NCBI GenBank assembly: GCA_041662965.1
Contig: JBAZRI010000003.1
Location: 65,331 to 129,330, forward strand
DNA length: 64,000 bases
Direction: 5' to 3'
Source: Patescibacteria group bacterium
GTDB lineage: Bacteria > Patescibacteriota > Patescibacteriia > Patescibacteriales > GWC2-42-12
Shown here: piece after piece, positions 4,213-64,000 of the stretch
Layout: every line of letters begins with the position of its first letter
Position numbering within the stretch: the stretch's first letter is position 1
Position numbers and translations under genes: made by a program
Notes under the pieces: generated by a model
What the model saw: only the letters and a program-made list of their open reading frames with translations
Database searches by the model: none
Told to the model about the DNA's origin: nothing

Positions 4213-7200
4213 TTATCTTTGCTCTCTTTCTCCAAAATTCTGCCTTCTCTCCCCTTCTTCCGCTGGTTTGTCATCGCCTTGCCGTTCTAGATTTACCACC
4301 TGATCGCCCTGTAAAAGCTCAACGTCTAAGCATAAACCTTTTAATTCCCTGACTAAAACGTTAAATGATTCCGGAACATTTAATTTTCTAATCGGCTCTC
4401 CTTTAATAATCGCCTCATAAGCCTTGCTCCGGCCCGGCACGTCATCCGATTTAATGGTTAATATTTCCTGCAGGCAATGAGCCGCGCCATAAGCCTCAAG
4501 CGCCCAAACTTCCATTTCGCCGAAACGCTGGCCGCCGAATTGGGCTTTGCCGCCTAGAGGCTGCTGGGTAATTAAAGAATAAGGCCCGATGGAACGCTGG
4601 TGCATTTTATCTTCAACCATATGGTTTAATTTCAGCATATATTTATAGCCAATCACCACCTGGTTGTCGTAAGCCTCGCCGGTTTTGCCGTCATAAAGAG
4701 TTACTTTGCCGTTGGTCGGCAGGCCGGCTTTCTTTAATTCTTCTTTAATTTGCGCCTCGCTAATGCCGTTTAAAGGCGGCACGGCAATTTTATAATTTAA
4801 TTTTTTTGCCGCGTAGCCTAAATGAGTTTCTAAAAGCTGGCCTAAATTCATTCTGGAAACAACGCCTAAAGGCGATAAAATTATTTCAATCGGCGTGCCA
4901 TCGGCTAAATAAGGCATATCTTCAATCGGCACGACTTTAGAAATAACTCCTTTGTTGCCGTGCCGGCCGGCCATTTTATCGCCGATTTGAATTTTTCTTA
5001 AGTTGGCCACGGTTACCTGAATTGACTGGATTACTCCGGCCGATAGCTTGTCGCCGTCTTCGCGGGAAAACAATTTAATATCAACCACTTTGCCGTGTTC
5101 ACCATGCTCTAAATACAGTGAAGAATCTCTAACGTCTTTGGCTTTTTCGCCGAAAATCGCGCGCAGAAGTTTTTCCTCGGCCGATAGTTCGGTTTCGCCC
5201 TTGGGCGTAATTTTACCGACTAAAATATCGCCTGAAGAAACTTCGGCGCCAATTCGGACAACGCCGCGCTCATCCAAGTCTTTTAATTTTTCCTCGCTGA
5301 TGTTAGGAATGTCATTAGTGATTAATTCCGGACCGAGCTTAGTGTCGCGCACGTCAATCGTATAATTTTCTATATGAATTGAAGAATAAACGTCTTCTTT
5401 CATTAAGCGCTCGGAGATAATCACCGCGTCTTCATAATTAAAGCCTTCCCAACTCATAAAAGCCACGAGCACATTGCGCCCCAGTGACAATTCGCCGTCA
5501 TCTACGGCCGAGCTGTTGGTTAAAACATCGCCTTTTTTTACTTTATCGCCGTGATTAACAATCGGGCGCTGATTTATGCAGGTTGAAGCGTTAGAGCGTA
5601 AAAATTTATTTAAAATATATTTGGTAGTCTGGCCTTTTTTACTTTTAAATTCAATTGAACCGCCGTCCATTTTAACGATTTCGCCGTCGTCAGGAGCTAA
5701 AATAATATGCCCTGAATCAGTAGCCGCCCGCGCTTCCATGCCCGTGCCGACGATCGGCGCTTCGGCGGTTATTAAGGGAACTGCCTGGCGCTGCATGTTT
5801 GTTCCCATTAAAGCCCTGATGCCGTCGTTATGCTCTAAAAAAGGAATTAAAGAAGTGGCCACGGAAACGATTTGATTCGGCGCCACGCCGATTAAATCTA
5901 TTTTTTCCACCGGCTCAAGCGAAGGCTGGCCGTATTTTCTGGCTTCGGCTTTTAGAACTTTAAAATAGCCGTTAGCGTCAACCGGAGTAGTCGCGGGCGT
6001 GGTAATATATTTTTCCTCTTCAAAAGCATCAAGATAAACAATCTCATCGCCTAAAACCGGCACGATCGGAATGGTAACATGGCCCATTTTCGCCTTTAAC
6101 TCGGCCGCGGTTTTTTTATCAATAACCTCGCCGGCCTTGATAATCAATTTGCCTTTTTTATCGCCCTTGATCTCATAAATATCTTCACGGGCGATTTTAT
6201 TAAGAGTCTTGGCCGGATCATTGGCTATGTCATGCAAAACCACGCGGTAAGGCGCTTCAATAAAACCATAACTGTTAAGGCGCGCGTAGCTGGCTAAATG
6301 GCCGACTAAGCCGATATTCGGGCCTTCCGGAGTAGCAATCGGGCAAATACGGCTATAATGGGTGGTATGCACGTCGCGCACTTCAAAGCCGGCGCGTTCG
6401 CGGGTTAAACCGCCCGGGCCCATGGCTGATAACCGGCGCTTATGTTCAAGCTCGGCCAAAGGATTGGTCTGATCCATGAATTGCGATAACTGCGAAGACA
6501 TGAAAAATTCCTTGACCACGCTGATGACCGGACGGGCGTTAATTAATTTATTTGGCGTCAGAGAGTCTATATCCATAATACTCATTCTGTCTCTGACGAT
6601 TCTTTCCATTCTGGCCAAACCGACTCTGAATTTATTTTGAATCAACTCGCCGATCGCTCTGACGCGGCGGTTGCCTAAATGGTCTATATCGTCTTCTCTC
6701 TCCTGGGTAATATTTAATCTGACGATTTCTTTAACGATGGCGATTAGATCTTCCCTTCTTAAAACTCTGTTTTCTTTATTATTGGGAATATTCTGGCCGA
6801 AGCGCTTATTCATCTTATAGCGGCCCACGCGGTCAAAGTCATAGCGGTCAAATCTGAAAAACATGGAATGGATTAATTGCCTGGCATTATCGGTCGTAGC
6901 TAAATCACCCGGCCTTATCCTCTTATATACTTCCTTAAGCCCTTCGGCCTCGTTTTTGGCCGCGTCTTTGGCTAAAGTGGCTTCAATATAGCCGGACAAA
7001 CTTTTCTGGCCGTCGATTCCGCCGGTCAATTCGTTTTTCTCGGTGAACAACTGCCTGATTTCTTCATCCGCTCCATAACCGAAAGCCCTGAATAAAGAAG
7101 TAATGGCGACTTTTCTTTTACGGTCAATTCTGACCCAGATGACATCATTCATGTCGGTTTCAATTTCCAGCCAAGCGCCGCGGTTAGGTATGACTTTGGC

Positions 7201-29892: not shown

Positions 29893-30627
29893 TTAAAACT
29901 TAACTAACGCCAAACAACCGTTAACCGGCGTTTTCGCTTCAGCTATGTCTATGCCATGGCTTTTTTTATTTATTCTTAATTCGGCCTGCCCGCTCTTGAA
30001 TAAAAAATCATATTTGTTTTCCGCAACTATTTTTCTAACAAATTTAAGACCGTTGCCCCGGCTTTCCGGCGCCCGCCCGGATATTATTTCGGTAAAAGCC
30101 ATTTTTACCGCGTCTTGATCATCTTTTAAATCTGGCCTGACCTTTCTTAAGGTAGTTAAAACTCCCTGGCCTCGATCGGCAATCGCCAATTGCCGGTTAT
30201 TAAGATTATAGATAAAAAACACCCCCGGAACATCCGGCCAGTTGCCGAGATTGTGGTCATAGGCATTATTGCCGATTTCTCCGACGACGGAAGTAATTAA
30301 AGAAAACCTGTCTTGCAGAATGCCGGATTTAATAAGTTCGGTTTCCAGCCTTGACAGCCGCGCCTGAAAAATTGAACTGTTGGGACAGTAAAAATCGGCC
30401 AGAGGTTCAACGGCTGTATCGCCGCTTGCCCATTTTAAAGCCAGTTTATAAATATCCAAATTAGGCATCAATTCGGCCAATAAATTTCTGTCATAGTATC
30501 TATGCCCGGAGCTTTTAAGGCGAACCGCCGGCAATTTTCCGCTTTTATCCCAGCGGCGAAGCGTATCTAGAGAAACTCCTAATATTTGCGTGGCCTGATT
30601 AATTGTTATTAACTCTTTATTTTGCAT
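29893..30627 (-). CDS. MerR/excisionase-type HTH fused to a GHKL (histidine-kinase-like) ATPase domain
   Basis: N-terminal HTH (ITINQATQILGVSLDTLRRWDKSGKL). C-terminal N-box-like EIGNNAYDH, and G-boxes DRGQGV and GNGLKFV. Confidence 0.65.
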   Translation of the reverse strand: MQNKELITINQATQILGVSLDTLRRWDKSGKLPAVRLKSSGHRYYDRNLLAELMPNLDIYKLALKWASGDTAVEPLADFYCPNSSIFQARLSRLETELIKSGILQDRFSLITSVVGEIGNNAYDHNLGNWPDVPGVFFIYNLNNRQLAIADRGQGVLTTLRKVRPDLKDDQDAVKMAFTEIISGRAPESRGNGLKFVRKIVAENKYDFLFKSGQAELRINKKSHGIDIAEAKTPVNGCLALVKF

Positions 30628-30796: not shown

Positions 30797-31273
30797 TTAA
30801 AAATTTTTGATGAGCGCGATTTCCTTGCAGTCTACTGACCCCGGTACGGCGATATTGCGCGGACAGCGGATACAATCTGTCCACATTTTTTTAGGCAGCA
30901 TCTCCATGCCAACTTTTTTAAAACCGTGCTTTTCAAAAGTATTAGGGCGTAAAGTTAAAGTGTAAACTATTTTTATGCCCAGATCCTCTATCCTCTCCAT
31001 CACTGCCGAAATTAGCATAGAGCCTATGCCGTGATTAAAATATTTTTTATCCACAACCCAAGAAACTATTTCCGCTTTTTCATCTTCACCGATTTTAAAA
31101 GCCACGCTGCCGGCAAATTGGCCATCATAGTCAGCCGCCAAAAAATTCGGCAACATGACCGTTAGCTCGGCTCTGCTTTTTGGCAGAAGCAACTCTTCCT
31201 TAGCATAGAGCTTGATTAAATCGTGAATTTTTACTATATCACTAACTACCGCTTGTCTAATTATTATTTTCAT
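30797..31273 (-). CDS. GNAT acetyltransferase of the short ArgA-like (COG1246, N-acetylglutamate synthase-like) type
   Basis: 158 aa. The N-terminal IRQAVVSDIVKIHDLIKLYAKEELLLPKS pattern, the GNAT core, and the C-terminal KMWTDCIRCP...C motif are typical of this subfamily. AGGAG RBS. Confidence 0.65.
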   Translation of the reverse strand: MKIIIRQAVVSDIVKIHDLIKLYAKEELLLPKSRAELTVMLPNFLAADYDGQFAGSVAFKIGEDEKAEIVSWVVDKKYFNHGIGSMLISAVMERIEDLGIKIVYTLTLRPNTFEKHGFKKVGMEMLPKKMWTDCIRCPRNIAVPGSVDCKEIALIKNF

Positions 31274-31371
31274 GATGAATCTCCTTTTTTGATTAAAATT
31301 TAACCGGTTGTTTCGTTTACCCTTTACGCTCCCCTATGCGCAGCATCACCTCCTTTCATTTTCAAAGAACT

Positions 31372-31394
31372 AAAAAACGGCCTTTTTGAGGCCG
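31372..31394 (-). terminator. Second short intrinsic terminator in the GNAT leader (CGGCC-TCAAAAA-GGCCG-T6)
   Basis: 5-bp all-GC stem with a 7-nt loop, followed by TTTTTT on the minus strand. Confidence 0.5.
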
Positions 31395-31421
31395 CTTGAT
31401 AGTTCGTAAAGTATAAATATT

Positions 31422-31505
31422 TTAAACACTAACAAACAGCCTCAAAAAAATAGTTTGAGTTGCGCGGCGTCTGTTTATAATTGCGTGTATTTTATTTTTT
31501 GCCAT
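31422..31505 (-). CDS. Candidate Arg-rich leader peptide (27 aa): MAKNKIHAIINRRRATQTIFLRLFVSV
   Basis: Hand-translated. AGA-CGC-CGC triplet of Arg codons. The ORF overlaps alternative hairpins upstream of the terminator at 31372-31394. No Shine-Dalgarno sequence is seen. Confidence 0.35.
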   Translation of the reverse strand: MAKNKIHAIINRRRATQTIFLRLFVSV

Positions 31506-31513
31506 ATAATATT

Positions 31514-31789
31514 AAAAAACCTCGTCTTCAAATAGAAAAAATTCTATTCAAGGACGAGGTTATTTAGTCTCGTGGTACCACCCTGATTCCCCAATTTTAT
31601 TATCGGAGCGCTCATTAAGCTATTTGCCCGCGGTAGCAAACCGCTCCGGCCTACTTAGGTTCAGCCGGCAATCTCCGGAAGCGCGTTCAGCATTACTGGC
31701 CTGCCGGGCTCGCACCATTACCCGGCTCGCTTAGAGGCTTAAATATTGCTTACTATTTTCCTTCAATGATTAGGTTGATTTTTAAGATC
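31514..31789 (-). promoter_or_regulatory. T-box riboswitch leader (specifier most likely CGC, Arg) with a terminator/antiterminator
   Basis: T-box sequence AATCAGGGTGGTACCACGAG (31569-31588). Stem I AG-bulge AGCGA and distal loop GGTGCGA. AGTA S-turn and GAA-CGC-G specifier loop. Terminator CCTCGTCC...GACGAGG plus T6 (31514-31559). Confidence 0.8.
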
Positions 31790-31795
31790 AATTAT

Positions 31796-31824
31796 ATTGT
31801 AATATATAAATAATTTTTTGTCAA
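31796..31824 (-). promoter_or_regulatory. Sigma-70-type promoter for the T-box leader
   Basis: TTGACA (31824-31819), a 17-nt spacer, and TACAAT (31801-31796). Confidence 0.6.
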
Positions 31825-31838
31825 ACTGACAAACTTTT

Positions 31839-32357
31839 TTACAAAACTTTCTCAAGAATAATCCCTCGTCGGCGATACCTTTCCTTCATTTCAGCAAAAG
31901 TAACTACGCCTAAATTTTCATGTATTTCATGGTTTATTTCGGTTATTTCACCGCCGAACCATTCGGGCGGAATAAAATTAAGCATGTCTTCATCATTATC
32001 AAATTCAACTTCCACTCTAACATAACCGCTTAATTTTTCTTTATAAATATCTAGCTCGCATATCAAATTATTAAGCGGTAACAAGTATCTTAATTTTTTA
32101 TGAGATTGGACGGTAGCGCCGATCAGGGCTTTAAACTCTCCTTCTTTAATATGAATAACATGCTCAATTCTTTCCTGCGCGGAATTATCTTCTTTTTTGA
32201 TTAAATGATAATCATTGCCTTTTTGGCGAATTTTTAAAGCATCAACCGCGTTAGAATCAAAAAAATCTCCGATTTGAATTTCAATCGGCTTGAATTGATT
32301 TAAATTATTGGGCAAATATTTTACTAAATAAACCCGTTCTCTTTCTGTTTGTTTCAT
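31839..32357 (-). CDS. CYTH-domain (triphosphate tunnel metalloenzyme) protein
   Basis: 172 aa with an N-terminal ExExK-like signature (TERERVYLVK) and a beta-barrel-type pattern. Confidence 0.6.
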   Translation of the reverse strand: MKQTERERVYLVKYLPNNLNQFKPIEIQIGDFFDSNAVDALKIRQKGNDYHLIKKEDNSAQERIEHVIHIKEGEFKALIGATVQSHKKLRYLLPLNNLICELDIYKEKLSGYVRVEVEFDNDEDMLNFIPPEWFGGEITEINHEIHENLGVVTFAEMKERYRRRGIILEKVL

Positions 32358-61194: not shown

Positions 61195-61312
61195 GTTCCG
61201 GCGCTGGCCTACTCTCCCAGGGCTTATGCCCAAGTACCATCGGCGCTGATGAGCTTGACTTCCGTGTTCGGGATGGGAACGGGTATGGCCTCATCGCTAG
61301 AAGCACCAGAAC
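61195..61312 (-). rRNA. rrf: 5S ribosomal RNA
   Basis: The minus strand reads GTTCTGGTGC...CCCGTTCCCATCCCGAACACGGAAGTCAAGC...GGGAGAGTAGG...GCGCCGGAAC. Helix I closes with 10 bp including G-U pairs. Confidence 0.9.

Positions 61313-61386: not shown

Positions 61387-64000
<2,614 letters not shown>

Follow-up and report, generated by a model that had tools for sequence, protein, structure and literature searches.

Can a single transcript carry two arginine sensors of different kinds, one behind the other? The question is raised by a locus in a 64,000-nucleotide (nt) stretch of DNA, hereafter the window, from a bacterium of the Patescibacteria (candidate phyla radiation, CPR). There, an arginine T-box leader is followed by a segment (31372-31505) that an earlier note had read as a possible second, ribosome-mediated attenuator, and then by a gene for an acetyltransferase of the GNAT family that resembles ArgA. 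All the leader elements lie on the minus strand. Our analysis leads us to consider this reading probably correct: judged from the sequences, the segment would be a ribosome-mediated transcription attenuator specific for Arg, placed in series behind the Arg T-box on one transcript and gating the ArgA-like gene.

Anatomy of the leader

The leader transcript would start at a promoter-like site, TTGACA-17-TACAAT (31796-31824; 11/12 matches, the best in the scanned region). The T-box that follows (31547-31775) scores 115.2 bits with the Rfam family RF00230, whose gathering score is 93, and the covariance model aligns its specifier loop as GAA-CGC-G-C, which bears out the earlier assignment of CGC, an Arg codon, as the specifier. 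At the 3' end of the T-box alignment lies the T-box terminator, recognized by its sequence as a hairpin (31559-31520) and a U-tract (31519-31514), and an ATG at 31505 stands eight bases past this U-tract. Membership of RF00230 holds for the upstream element alone; the segment 31372-31505 is outside the T-box and gave no T-box match in the Rfam search. In that search (31150-31900, E <= 10) the second element had no family, the matches being chance similarities to microRNAs and Phe_leader with 23.8 bits against a required 55 (E = 0.17). No second promoter was found in the window immediately before the leader ATG at the scan threshold.

The ATG opens an open reading frame (ORF) of 27 codons, MAKNKIHAIINRRRATQTIFLRLFVSV (31422-31505), which ends with UAA at 31424-31422. 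Sequence and comparison of leaders point to three successive Arg codons, AGA-CGC-CGC (31464-31472), as the putative regulatory codons. Such a run is rare: RRR occurs only 4 times in the window's long ORFs, which comprise 17,679 codons. Among the window's Arg codons, CGC (27.5%) and AGA (25.4%) rank first and second, and the leader therefore samples both major decoding routes, whereas the T-box specifier samples the CGC decoder only.

The lack of a Shine-Dalgarno (SD) sequence before the leader ATG had been entered as a caveat. The ATG indeed has none, but this does not weaken the case, because an SD-like GGAG/GAGG/AGGA motif is present within 18 nt of the first ATG in only 6 of the 43 window ORFs of at least 150 amino acids (aa) and absent in 37; SD-less or leaderless initiation is thus the norm in the window. 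The leader ATG stands in A/U-rich surroundings, as is typical of the window's ORFs. As a separate observation, a TATAAT-like box lies 5-8 nt before the ATG of many long window ORFs (for example, those starting at 30627, 29051, 40239, and 54576), and the sequence suggests that leaderless mRNAs are widespread in this organism.

The RNA of the second element can form three helices from four strands. Region 1 (31454-31476), the 5' strand of an anti-antiterminator, was delimited by folding and pair counts and consists of AAACAG, the loop ACGCCGCGCAA, and CUCAAA. Region 2, UUUUUGAGGCUGUUUGUUAGU (31428-31448), is the alternative partner of region 1 or region 3, and region 3, ACUAUCAAGCGGCCUCAAAAA (31383-31403), is the 3' strand of an antiterminator of about 21 bp and overlaps the 5' arm and loop of a predicted second intrinsic terminator (31367-31405). 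In the P1 hairpin (1:2), the partner of region 1 is UUUGAG[G]CUGUUU in region 2, and the Arg codons lie inside the internal loop. The antiterminator (2:3) joins 31448-31428 with 31403-31383; of its 21 positions one is a U-U mismatch, and its energy is -27 to -29 kcal/mol. The terminator (3:4) is composed of the outer strands GAACUA/UAGUUC, the inner strands AAGCGGCCU/AGGCCGUUU (31397-31375), and a U-tract at 31377-31372, and folds with -21.4 kcal/mol. According to folding and pair counts, the anti-antiterminator shares bases with the antiterminator and the antiterminator with the terminator; in other words, these helices are mutually exclusive.

The repeats on which the earlier note had built its case lie on the minus strand where it placed them (CTCAAA at 31459-31454, TTTGAG at 31446-31441, TTTTTGAGGC at 31448-31439, and GCCTCAAAAA at 31392-31383), and the start of the ORF, the second terminator (CGGCC...GGCCG plus T6, 31394-31372), and the GNAT start at 31273 were placed correctly as well. 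Two of its measurements were too small. The 10-nt complementarity between regions 2 and 3 is present as located, but the pairing runs over about 21 bp; and the terminator stem, described as only 5 bp, is a 9-bp stem with five G-C pairs followed by T6 in our terminator scan (31397-31372), plus the outer 6 bp.

Constrained folding of 31505-31362 gives -34.1 kcal/mol for P1 plus terminator versus -32.3 kcal/mol for the antiterminator, and the antiterminator is the minimum-free-energy fold for transcripts ending at 31385-31370, where the polymerase would be on the U-tract. With less than 2 kcal/mol between the states, the 2:3 pairing can compete with 3:4, a point that the earlier proposal had left to be checked. 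The 156-nt segment folds at z = -2.97 relative to dinucleotide shuffles, and this value, the rarity of RRR, and the conservation of the segment in relatives argue against the suspicion that a short AT-rich ORF had simply arisen here by chance.

Conservation among related leaders

Relatives were gathered as GNAT homologues (61-88% identical) with their contigs and by a metagenome scan with the invariant 17-mer GAGGCTGTTTGTTAGTG, which returned 50 hits, about 20 of them true members and about 30 chance matches. This gave 15 distinct leaders, to which we refer by L numbers where they have to be told apart. The segment behind the T-box is strongly conserved in those relatives that keep the T-box, whereas the flanking intergenic DNA is not. 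A T-box lies just upstream in 12 of the 15 leaders (11 reach the gathering score, and L036 has 70 bits), and L055 is a 13th leader with a T-box, the contig end falling inside it.

The start, frame, and end of the ORF are largely shared. TATG is found in all 15 leaders, and the Arg run lies in the ATG-initiated frame in 14, so that related genomes with the T-box and the GNAT gene do keep the ORF, its ATG, and its Arg codons, as the earlier note would have it. The stop codon has the same position in 12 of 15, 19 nt into the anchor of region 2 and just past that region; in L055 the ORF ends at a UGA inside region 2, which leaves 20 aa. The Arg run varies as AGA-CGC-CGT (L044), AGA-CGA-CGC-AGA (L032), AGG-CGC-CGA (L036), and AGA-CGC-CAC (L025, RRH), which amounts to four synonymous third-position changes, one replacement, and a fourth Arg gained in L032. 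The N-terminal codons of L032 and L036 cannot be aligned, and 10 and 12 codons, respectively, precede the run (versus 11), yet the frame is kept; a +1 insertion before CUC is balanced by a -1 change in the hairpin loop, which restores the frame into region 2. When the segment upstream of the Arg run was shuffled, the probability of an in-frame, stop-free ATG was about 0.06-0.2 per lineage, which multiplies to about 1-2e-3 for three lineages.

Among the leaders, most changes in codons 2-11 fall on the first two positions, and most are non-synonymous; the frame is therefore kept, but the peptide is not. Such a pattern of sequence change is expected of a leader peptide and not of a functional small protein. 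An excess of changes at third codon positions, as a sign of a conserved peptide, was not found in these leaders, which fits a leader peptide and is no independent proof of translation. No stop codons occur among the roughly 15 N-terminal substitutions, but by a rough estimate the chance of this is about one in three, which is not significant, and we did not use it. A sequence search for annotated copies of the leader peptide yielded only a spurious 73-aa ORF of L032.

Pairs were counted in an anchor-based ungapped alignment of 13 distinct sequences, and compensatory changes appear in all three helices, as the earlier note had proposed to check. In the 2:3 helix, 91.9% of the cells are paired versus 32-55% in slid registers; its covariation score is reached by 15 of 500 shuffles, and its count of three doubly changed cells by one of 500. 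The compensatory changes, seen in two independent lineages, are U-A to A-U (L032 and L036) and U-A to C-G (L036). The 1:2 helix (P1) has 96.7% of its cells paired versus 40-56% in slid registers, with 44 of 500 shuffles reaching the covariation score; an A-U to G-C change in L036 is compensatory, and the one-sided changes in L012 and L015 are compatible through G-U pairs. For the 3:4 helix the corresponding values are 84.1%, 27-65%, and 71 of 500, with one compensatory change from A-U to G-C (L032). At 31446, L036 has C instead of U, and this C finds a G opposite it in the 1:2 helix (CUCAAG:CUUGAG) as well as in the 2:3 helix, both partners having changed in step. In region 3 of L032, all four one-sided changes are transitions that still pair with U.

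The surroundings of the element differ from leader to leader. The T-box of L032 has the specifier CGA, and the gene comes directly after the terminator and the SD. The L036 leader (MVSTQQTSFRAIRRRGNSRFYLRLFVSVQKLKL, L036 937-1424) follows the 70-bit T-box, which is below threshold and whose specifier aligns with AAG (Lys), and it precedes an unrelated protein of 178 aa (ORF 1420-1965); to judge from these sequences, L036 may be a mixed Lys/Arg gate. The module of L025 stands behind a weak promoter-like site. Because the Arg leader is found without a T-box (L025), behind a CGA T-box (L032), and before a different gene (L036), it is a separable module. In L083, whose GNAT is 73% identical, there is only a promoter, with neither T-box nor leader (L083 1-104). 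An ORF of about 90 aa (MKK.RRF.VLQVTF...) is inserted between the leader and the GNAT gene in L016 (1657-1926), L019 (165-446), L020 (1210-1494), and L067 (2763-3047), where the leader heads a two-gene operon. Pfam gave no matches for this inserted ORF or for the 178-aa protein of L036.

Beyond this family, the GNATs found by a scan of genome contigs with the GNAT protein were all distant (33-40% identical) and came from Planctomycetota, Bacillota, and Proteobacteria, and nhmmer found no attenuator on their contigs. A pattern scan of viral contigs gave 5 hits, none of them related, and a protein search with the L032 GNAT returned only itself. Second copies of the module were not found by nhmmer in the window or in the relatives' contigs; the reverse-strand matches that appeared are due to the palindromic nature of the 2:3 helix.

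A model of the switch and its alternatives

From this anatomy we infer how translation of the ORF, stalling on its Arg codons, and termination might be connected, and in which direction the regulation would run. For the ribosome, we assumed a leading edge about 12-13 nt 3' of the A-site codon; such a distance is the textbook toeprint value. For a ribosome whose A site is on the third Arg codon (31466-31464), this assumed distance places the edge at about 31454, the end of CUCAAA, so that region 1 is covered and region 2 (from 31448 on) is free. With UAA in the A site, about 31439-31410 would be covered, that is, the 3' two-thirds of region 2, and UUUGAG would be left exposed; the UAA at 31424 is 4 nt past the end of region 2.

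In transcripts that have passed the T-box terminator, an AUG without an SD would lie in A/U-rich sequence. With Arg-tRNA in ample supply, the ribosome would pass AGA-CGC-CGC, move onto region 2 and the UAA, and mask region 2 from region 3. The small 1:2 stem (UUUGAG/CUCAAA) could re-form behind a ribosome at the UAA, the 3:4 terminator would form, and transcription would stop at 31377-31372. When Arg-tRNA is scarce, the ribosome would stall with an Arg codon in its A site, covering region 1 to about 31454 and leaving region 2 free to pair with the emerging region 3; the resulting antiterminator of about 21 bp would let RNA polymerase read into the gene, in keeping with the way the trp and his attenuators work. 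The two stages together would act as an AND gate, in which the T-box reads the uncharged CGC-decoding tRNA-Arg and the leader responds to how fast AGA and CGC are decoded. At the decision point the naked RNA favours 2:3, and the folding model therefore suggests read-through, not super-attenuation, as the untranslated default.

Several observations weigh against this model. In the L012 lineage (four contigs from different samples: L012, L013, L014, and L059), the ORF has a 1-nt deletion: the frame of the ATG (MAKIKY*, L012 1768-1911) stops after six codons, the Arg frame is without a canonical start, and the T-box, all three helices, and the GNAT gene are nevertheless intact. A read-through default would explain the intact gene in this lineage. 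L025 has the module with no T-box in the 110 nt upstream (L025 1-300), and its run reads RRH instead of RRR. Within the window family, nucleotides around the Arg codons are highly conserved, which could also reflect a constraint at the RNA level. Low sequence diversity (three effective lineages) and a search pattern that kept 17 nt of region 2 constant make the covariation statistics modest; the terminator (3:4) alone is not significant by shuffling, and the U-tract of L036 is weak. In L032, a promoter-like site, TTGACT-17-AATAAT (10/12; 5121-5149, minus strand), overlaps the leader ATG; transcripts started there, if the site is active, would skip the T-box and lack the leader start codon.

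Some of these points are what would be expected if the element were an RNA switch independent of translation, with a protein, a tRNA, or a small ligand binding the asymmetric P1 loop ACGCCGCGCAA and the ORF being incidental. The nucleotides of this loop are almost invariant within the window family, the L012 lineage has kept every helix with a broken ORF, and the leader ATG is without an SD. Against such a switch, the loops of L032 and L036 differ (ACGACGCAGAAA and GGCGCCGAGGAAA) yet encode in-frame Arg codons with a conserved ATG, the indels are frame-compensated, the stop codon's position is conserved, and no Rfam family fits, the best being Phe_leader (23.8 bits versus a gathering score of 55). 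On this evidence we regard a translation-independent switch as the main rival, but an unlikely one. An alternative in which the ribosome does stall, but for another reason, is a drug- or peptide-dependent arrest leader as in the erm and ABC-F leaders, where a basic +x+ motif, here RRR, would stall ribosomes and induce the acetyltransferase. Sites of the type R/K-x-R/K in leader peptides are known antibiotic-dependent stall sites (PMC8632094), and there are resistance enzymes among the GNATs. However, the T-box with a specifier for Arg that stands directly upstream in 12 of the 15 leaders (in one of these, L036, the specifier aligns with AAG), a GNAT whose only structural relatives are N-acetylglutamate synthases, and a flanking peptide that is not conserved make an arrest leader very improbable.

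That there is no regulatory switch at all, the ORF being either the gene of a small functional protein or a chance reading frame beside a fail-safe second terminator, can hardly be entertained. Short AT-rich ORFs are common and tandem terminators exist, but purifying selection does not act on the peptide, which is cut short in L055; the alternative 21-bp helix shows covariation and matches the terminator state in energy; and the segment is strongly conserved where the flanking intergenic DNA is not. A ribosome-mediated Arg attenuator remains the most likely reading.

The putatively regulated gene and known attenuators

The putatively regulated gene (30797-31273, minus strand) encodes a GNAT of 158 aa that is most similar to short N-acetylglutamate synthases (NAGS; ArgA). 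It scores 127 bits against PRK07757, whose cut-off is 154, and it also matches three ArgA/NAGS models and the acetyltransferase end of the argininosuccinate-lyase model PRK12308, all below their cut-offs. Its only relatives in the PDB are entries described as 'amino-acid acetyltransferase' or N-acetylglutamate synthase, namely 5yge/5yo2 of M. tuberculosis, 3e0k, and 2r8v of N. gonorrhoeae. By its sequence, such an ArgA-like enzyme would fit an arginine regulon. The gene has an SD at 31284-31281, about 140 nt from the leader stop codon and with the second terminator in between.

Two conserved blocks lie between this terminator and the gene, both on the minus strand. The extended SD-like block GAAAGGAGGUGA (31346-31357) is a perfect 12-nt match that is kept behind the second terminator, in a genome that makes little use of SDs; neither a start codon nor an ORF is conserved behind it. 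The same block serves as the actual SD of the gene in L032 and L036 and is deleted in L015. It resembles the STAB-SD mRNA stabilizer (GAAAGGAGG) of B. thuringiensis cryIIIA. The second block, GGGGAGCGUAAAGGGUAAACGAAACAACCGG (31304-31334), is conserved in primary sequence in the window family and reads GGGRAGCGTAAAGCGTAAAC..AAYAACCGG, with TAA in two frames; neither an ORF nor an Rfam match was found in it, and RNAalifold found no conserved structure downstream of the second terminator. Elsewhere in the window, the 23S rRNA gene (61387-64000, minus strand) carries large insertions when compared with the bacterial model, of about 100 nt near model position 583 and of 79 nt near position 690, and is followed by a 5S gene at 61196-61310.

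How new would this arrangement be? A full-text literature search found no Arg-codon leader peptide that controls an intrinsic terminator, and another found no report of a T-box for Patescibacteria or CPR. On balance, we are inclined to see in this element the first described transcription attenuator with an Arg-codon leader peptide and the first ribosome-mediated one in CPR, a portable and SD-less device that is used in series with a T-box and can be combined with T-boxes of other specificity (Lys-like in L036). If so, arginine is to be counted among the few amino acids that classical attenuation senses, and coupled transcription-translation control operates in the Patescibacteria, which are not yet growable alone and whose gene regulation is almost unknown. 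The locus would also be a natural case of two mechanistically different tRNA sensors stacked as a transcriptional AND gate, and the ArgA-like acetyltransferase would be a gene for arginine starvation, in organisms commonly regarded as lacking amino-acid biosynthesis. The module is self-contained and only about 140 nt long, which makes it amenable to heterologous or cell-free systems.

A close precedent is the rtpA (anti-TRAP) leader of B. subtilis. In this leader, the ribosome is reported to stall in the leader peptide ORF rtpLP, which has three Trp codons, and to block the SD of rtpA when it stands at the rtpLP stop codon. Chen and Yanofsky (Science 2003 and Mol Cell 2004, as cited in PMC10327191) described for it a T-box and, behind this, a translational control in which ribosomes stall depending on tRNA. 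In both the rtpA leader and ours, a T-box that senses uncharged tRNA comes first, and a short ORF with three consecutive cognate codons, which would sense decoding speed, comes second. The second stage of rtpA is translational and specific for Trp, whereas both stages of the present leader, to judge from its layout, would be transcriptional and specific for Arg. A stop codon abutting the SD, as at rtpA, was not found in our leader (stop 31424-31422, SD 31284-31281); because about 140 nt and a terminator separate the two, both stages would act on transcription. The claim of a new arrangement in the earlier note therefore holds for the all-transcriptional, Arg-specific version in CPR, but a T-box in series with a cognate-codon leader peptide was already known at rtpA. 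From tandem riboswitches and tandem T-boxes it is expected that two serial attenuators give a steeper, AND-like response. Such pairs are usually two copies of one mechanism, whereas two kinds of stage would be combined here.

Arginine codons are also read by a ribosome in the Salmonella speF leader, where pausing at consecutive Arg codons of orf34 selects alternative mRNA structures according to the arginine supply (PMC6386406). In that leader the choice of structure is translated into RNase G sensitivity and Rho-dependent termination of a polyamine gene, with neither an intrinsic terminator nor a T-box involved (PMC6386406). Outside the Proteobacteria, yfmH-yfmG of B. subtilis is controlled by leader-peptide attenuation with anti-antiterminator, antiterminator, and terminator helices (PMC7491331). 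Our element has every sequence-level defining feature of a leader-peptide attenuator that was testable. As in trpL, hisL, leuL, thrL, and pheL of E. coli and Salmonella and in the actinobacterial trp, leu, and ilv leaders (PMC1262725), an ORF with cognate codons is combined with mutually exclusive helices. As in the classical attenuators, too, the stop codon lies where a finishing ribosome would mask region 2, and an intrinsic terminator precedes the gene, here a candidate biosynthetic one. Unlike them, the present element is specific for Arg, belongs to a host among the Patescibacteria, begins at an SD-less start codon, has an unusually long antiterminator of about 21 bp, and is located not directly after a promoter but downstream of a complete T-box.

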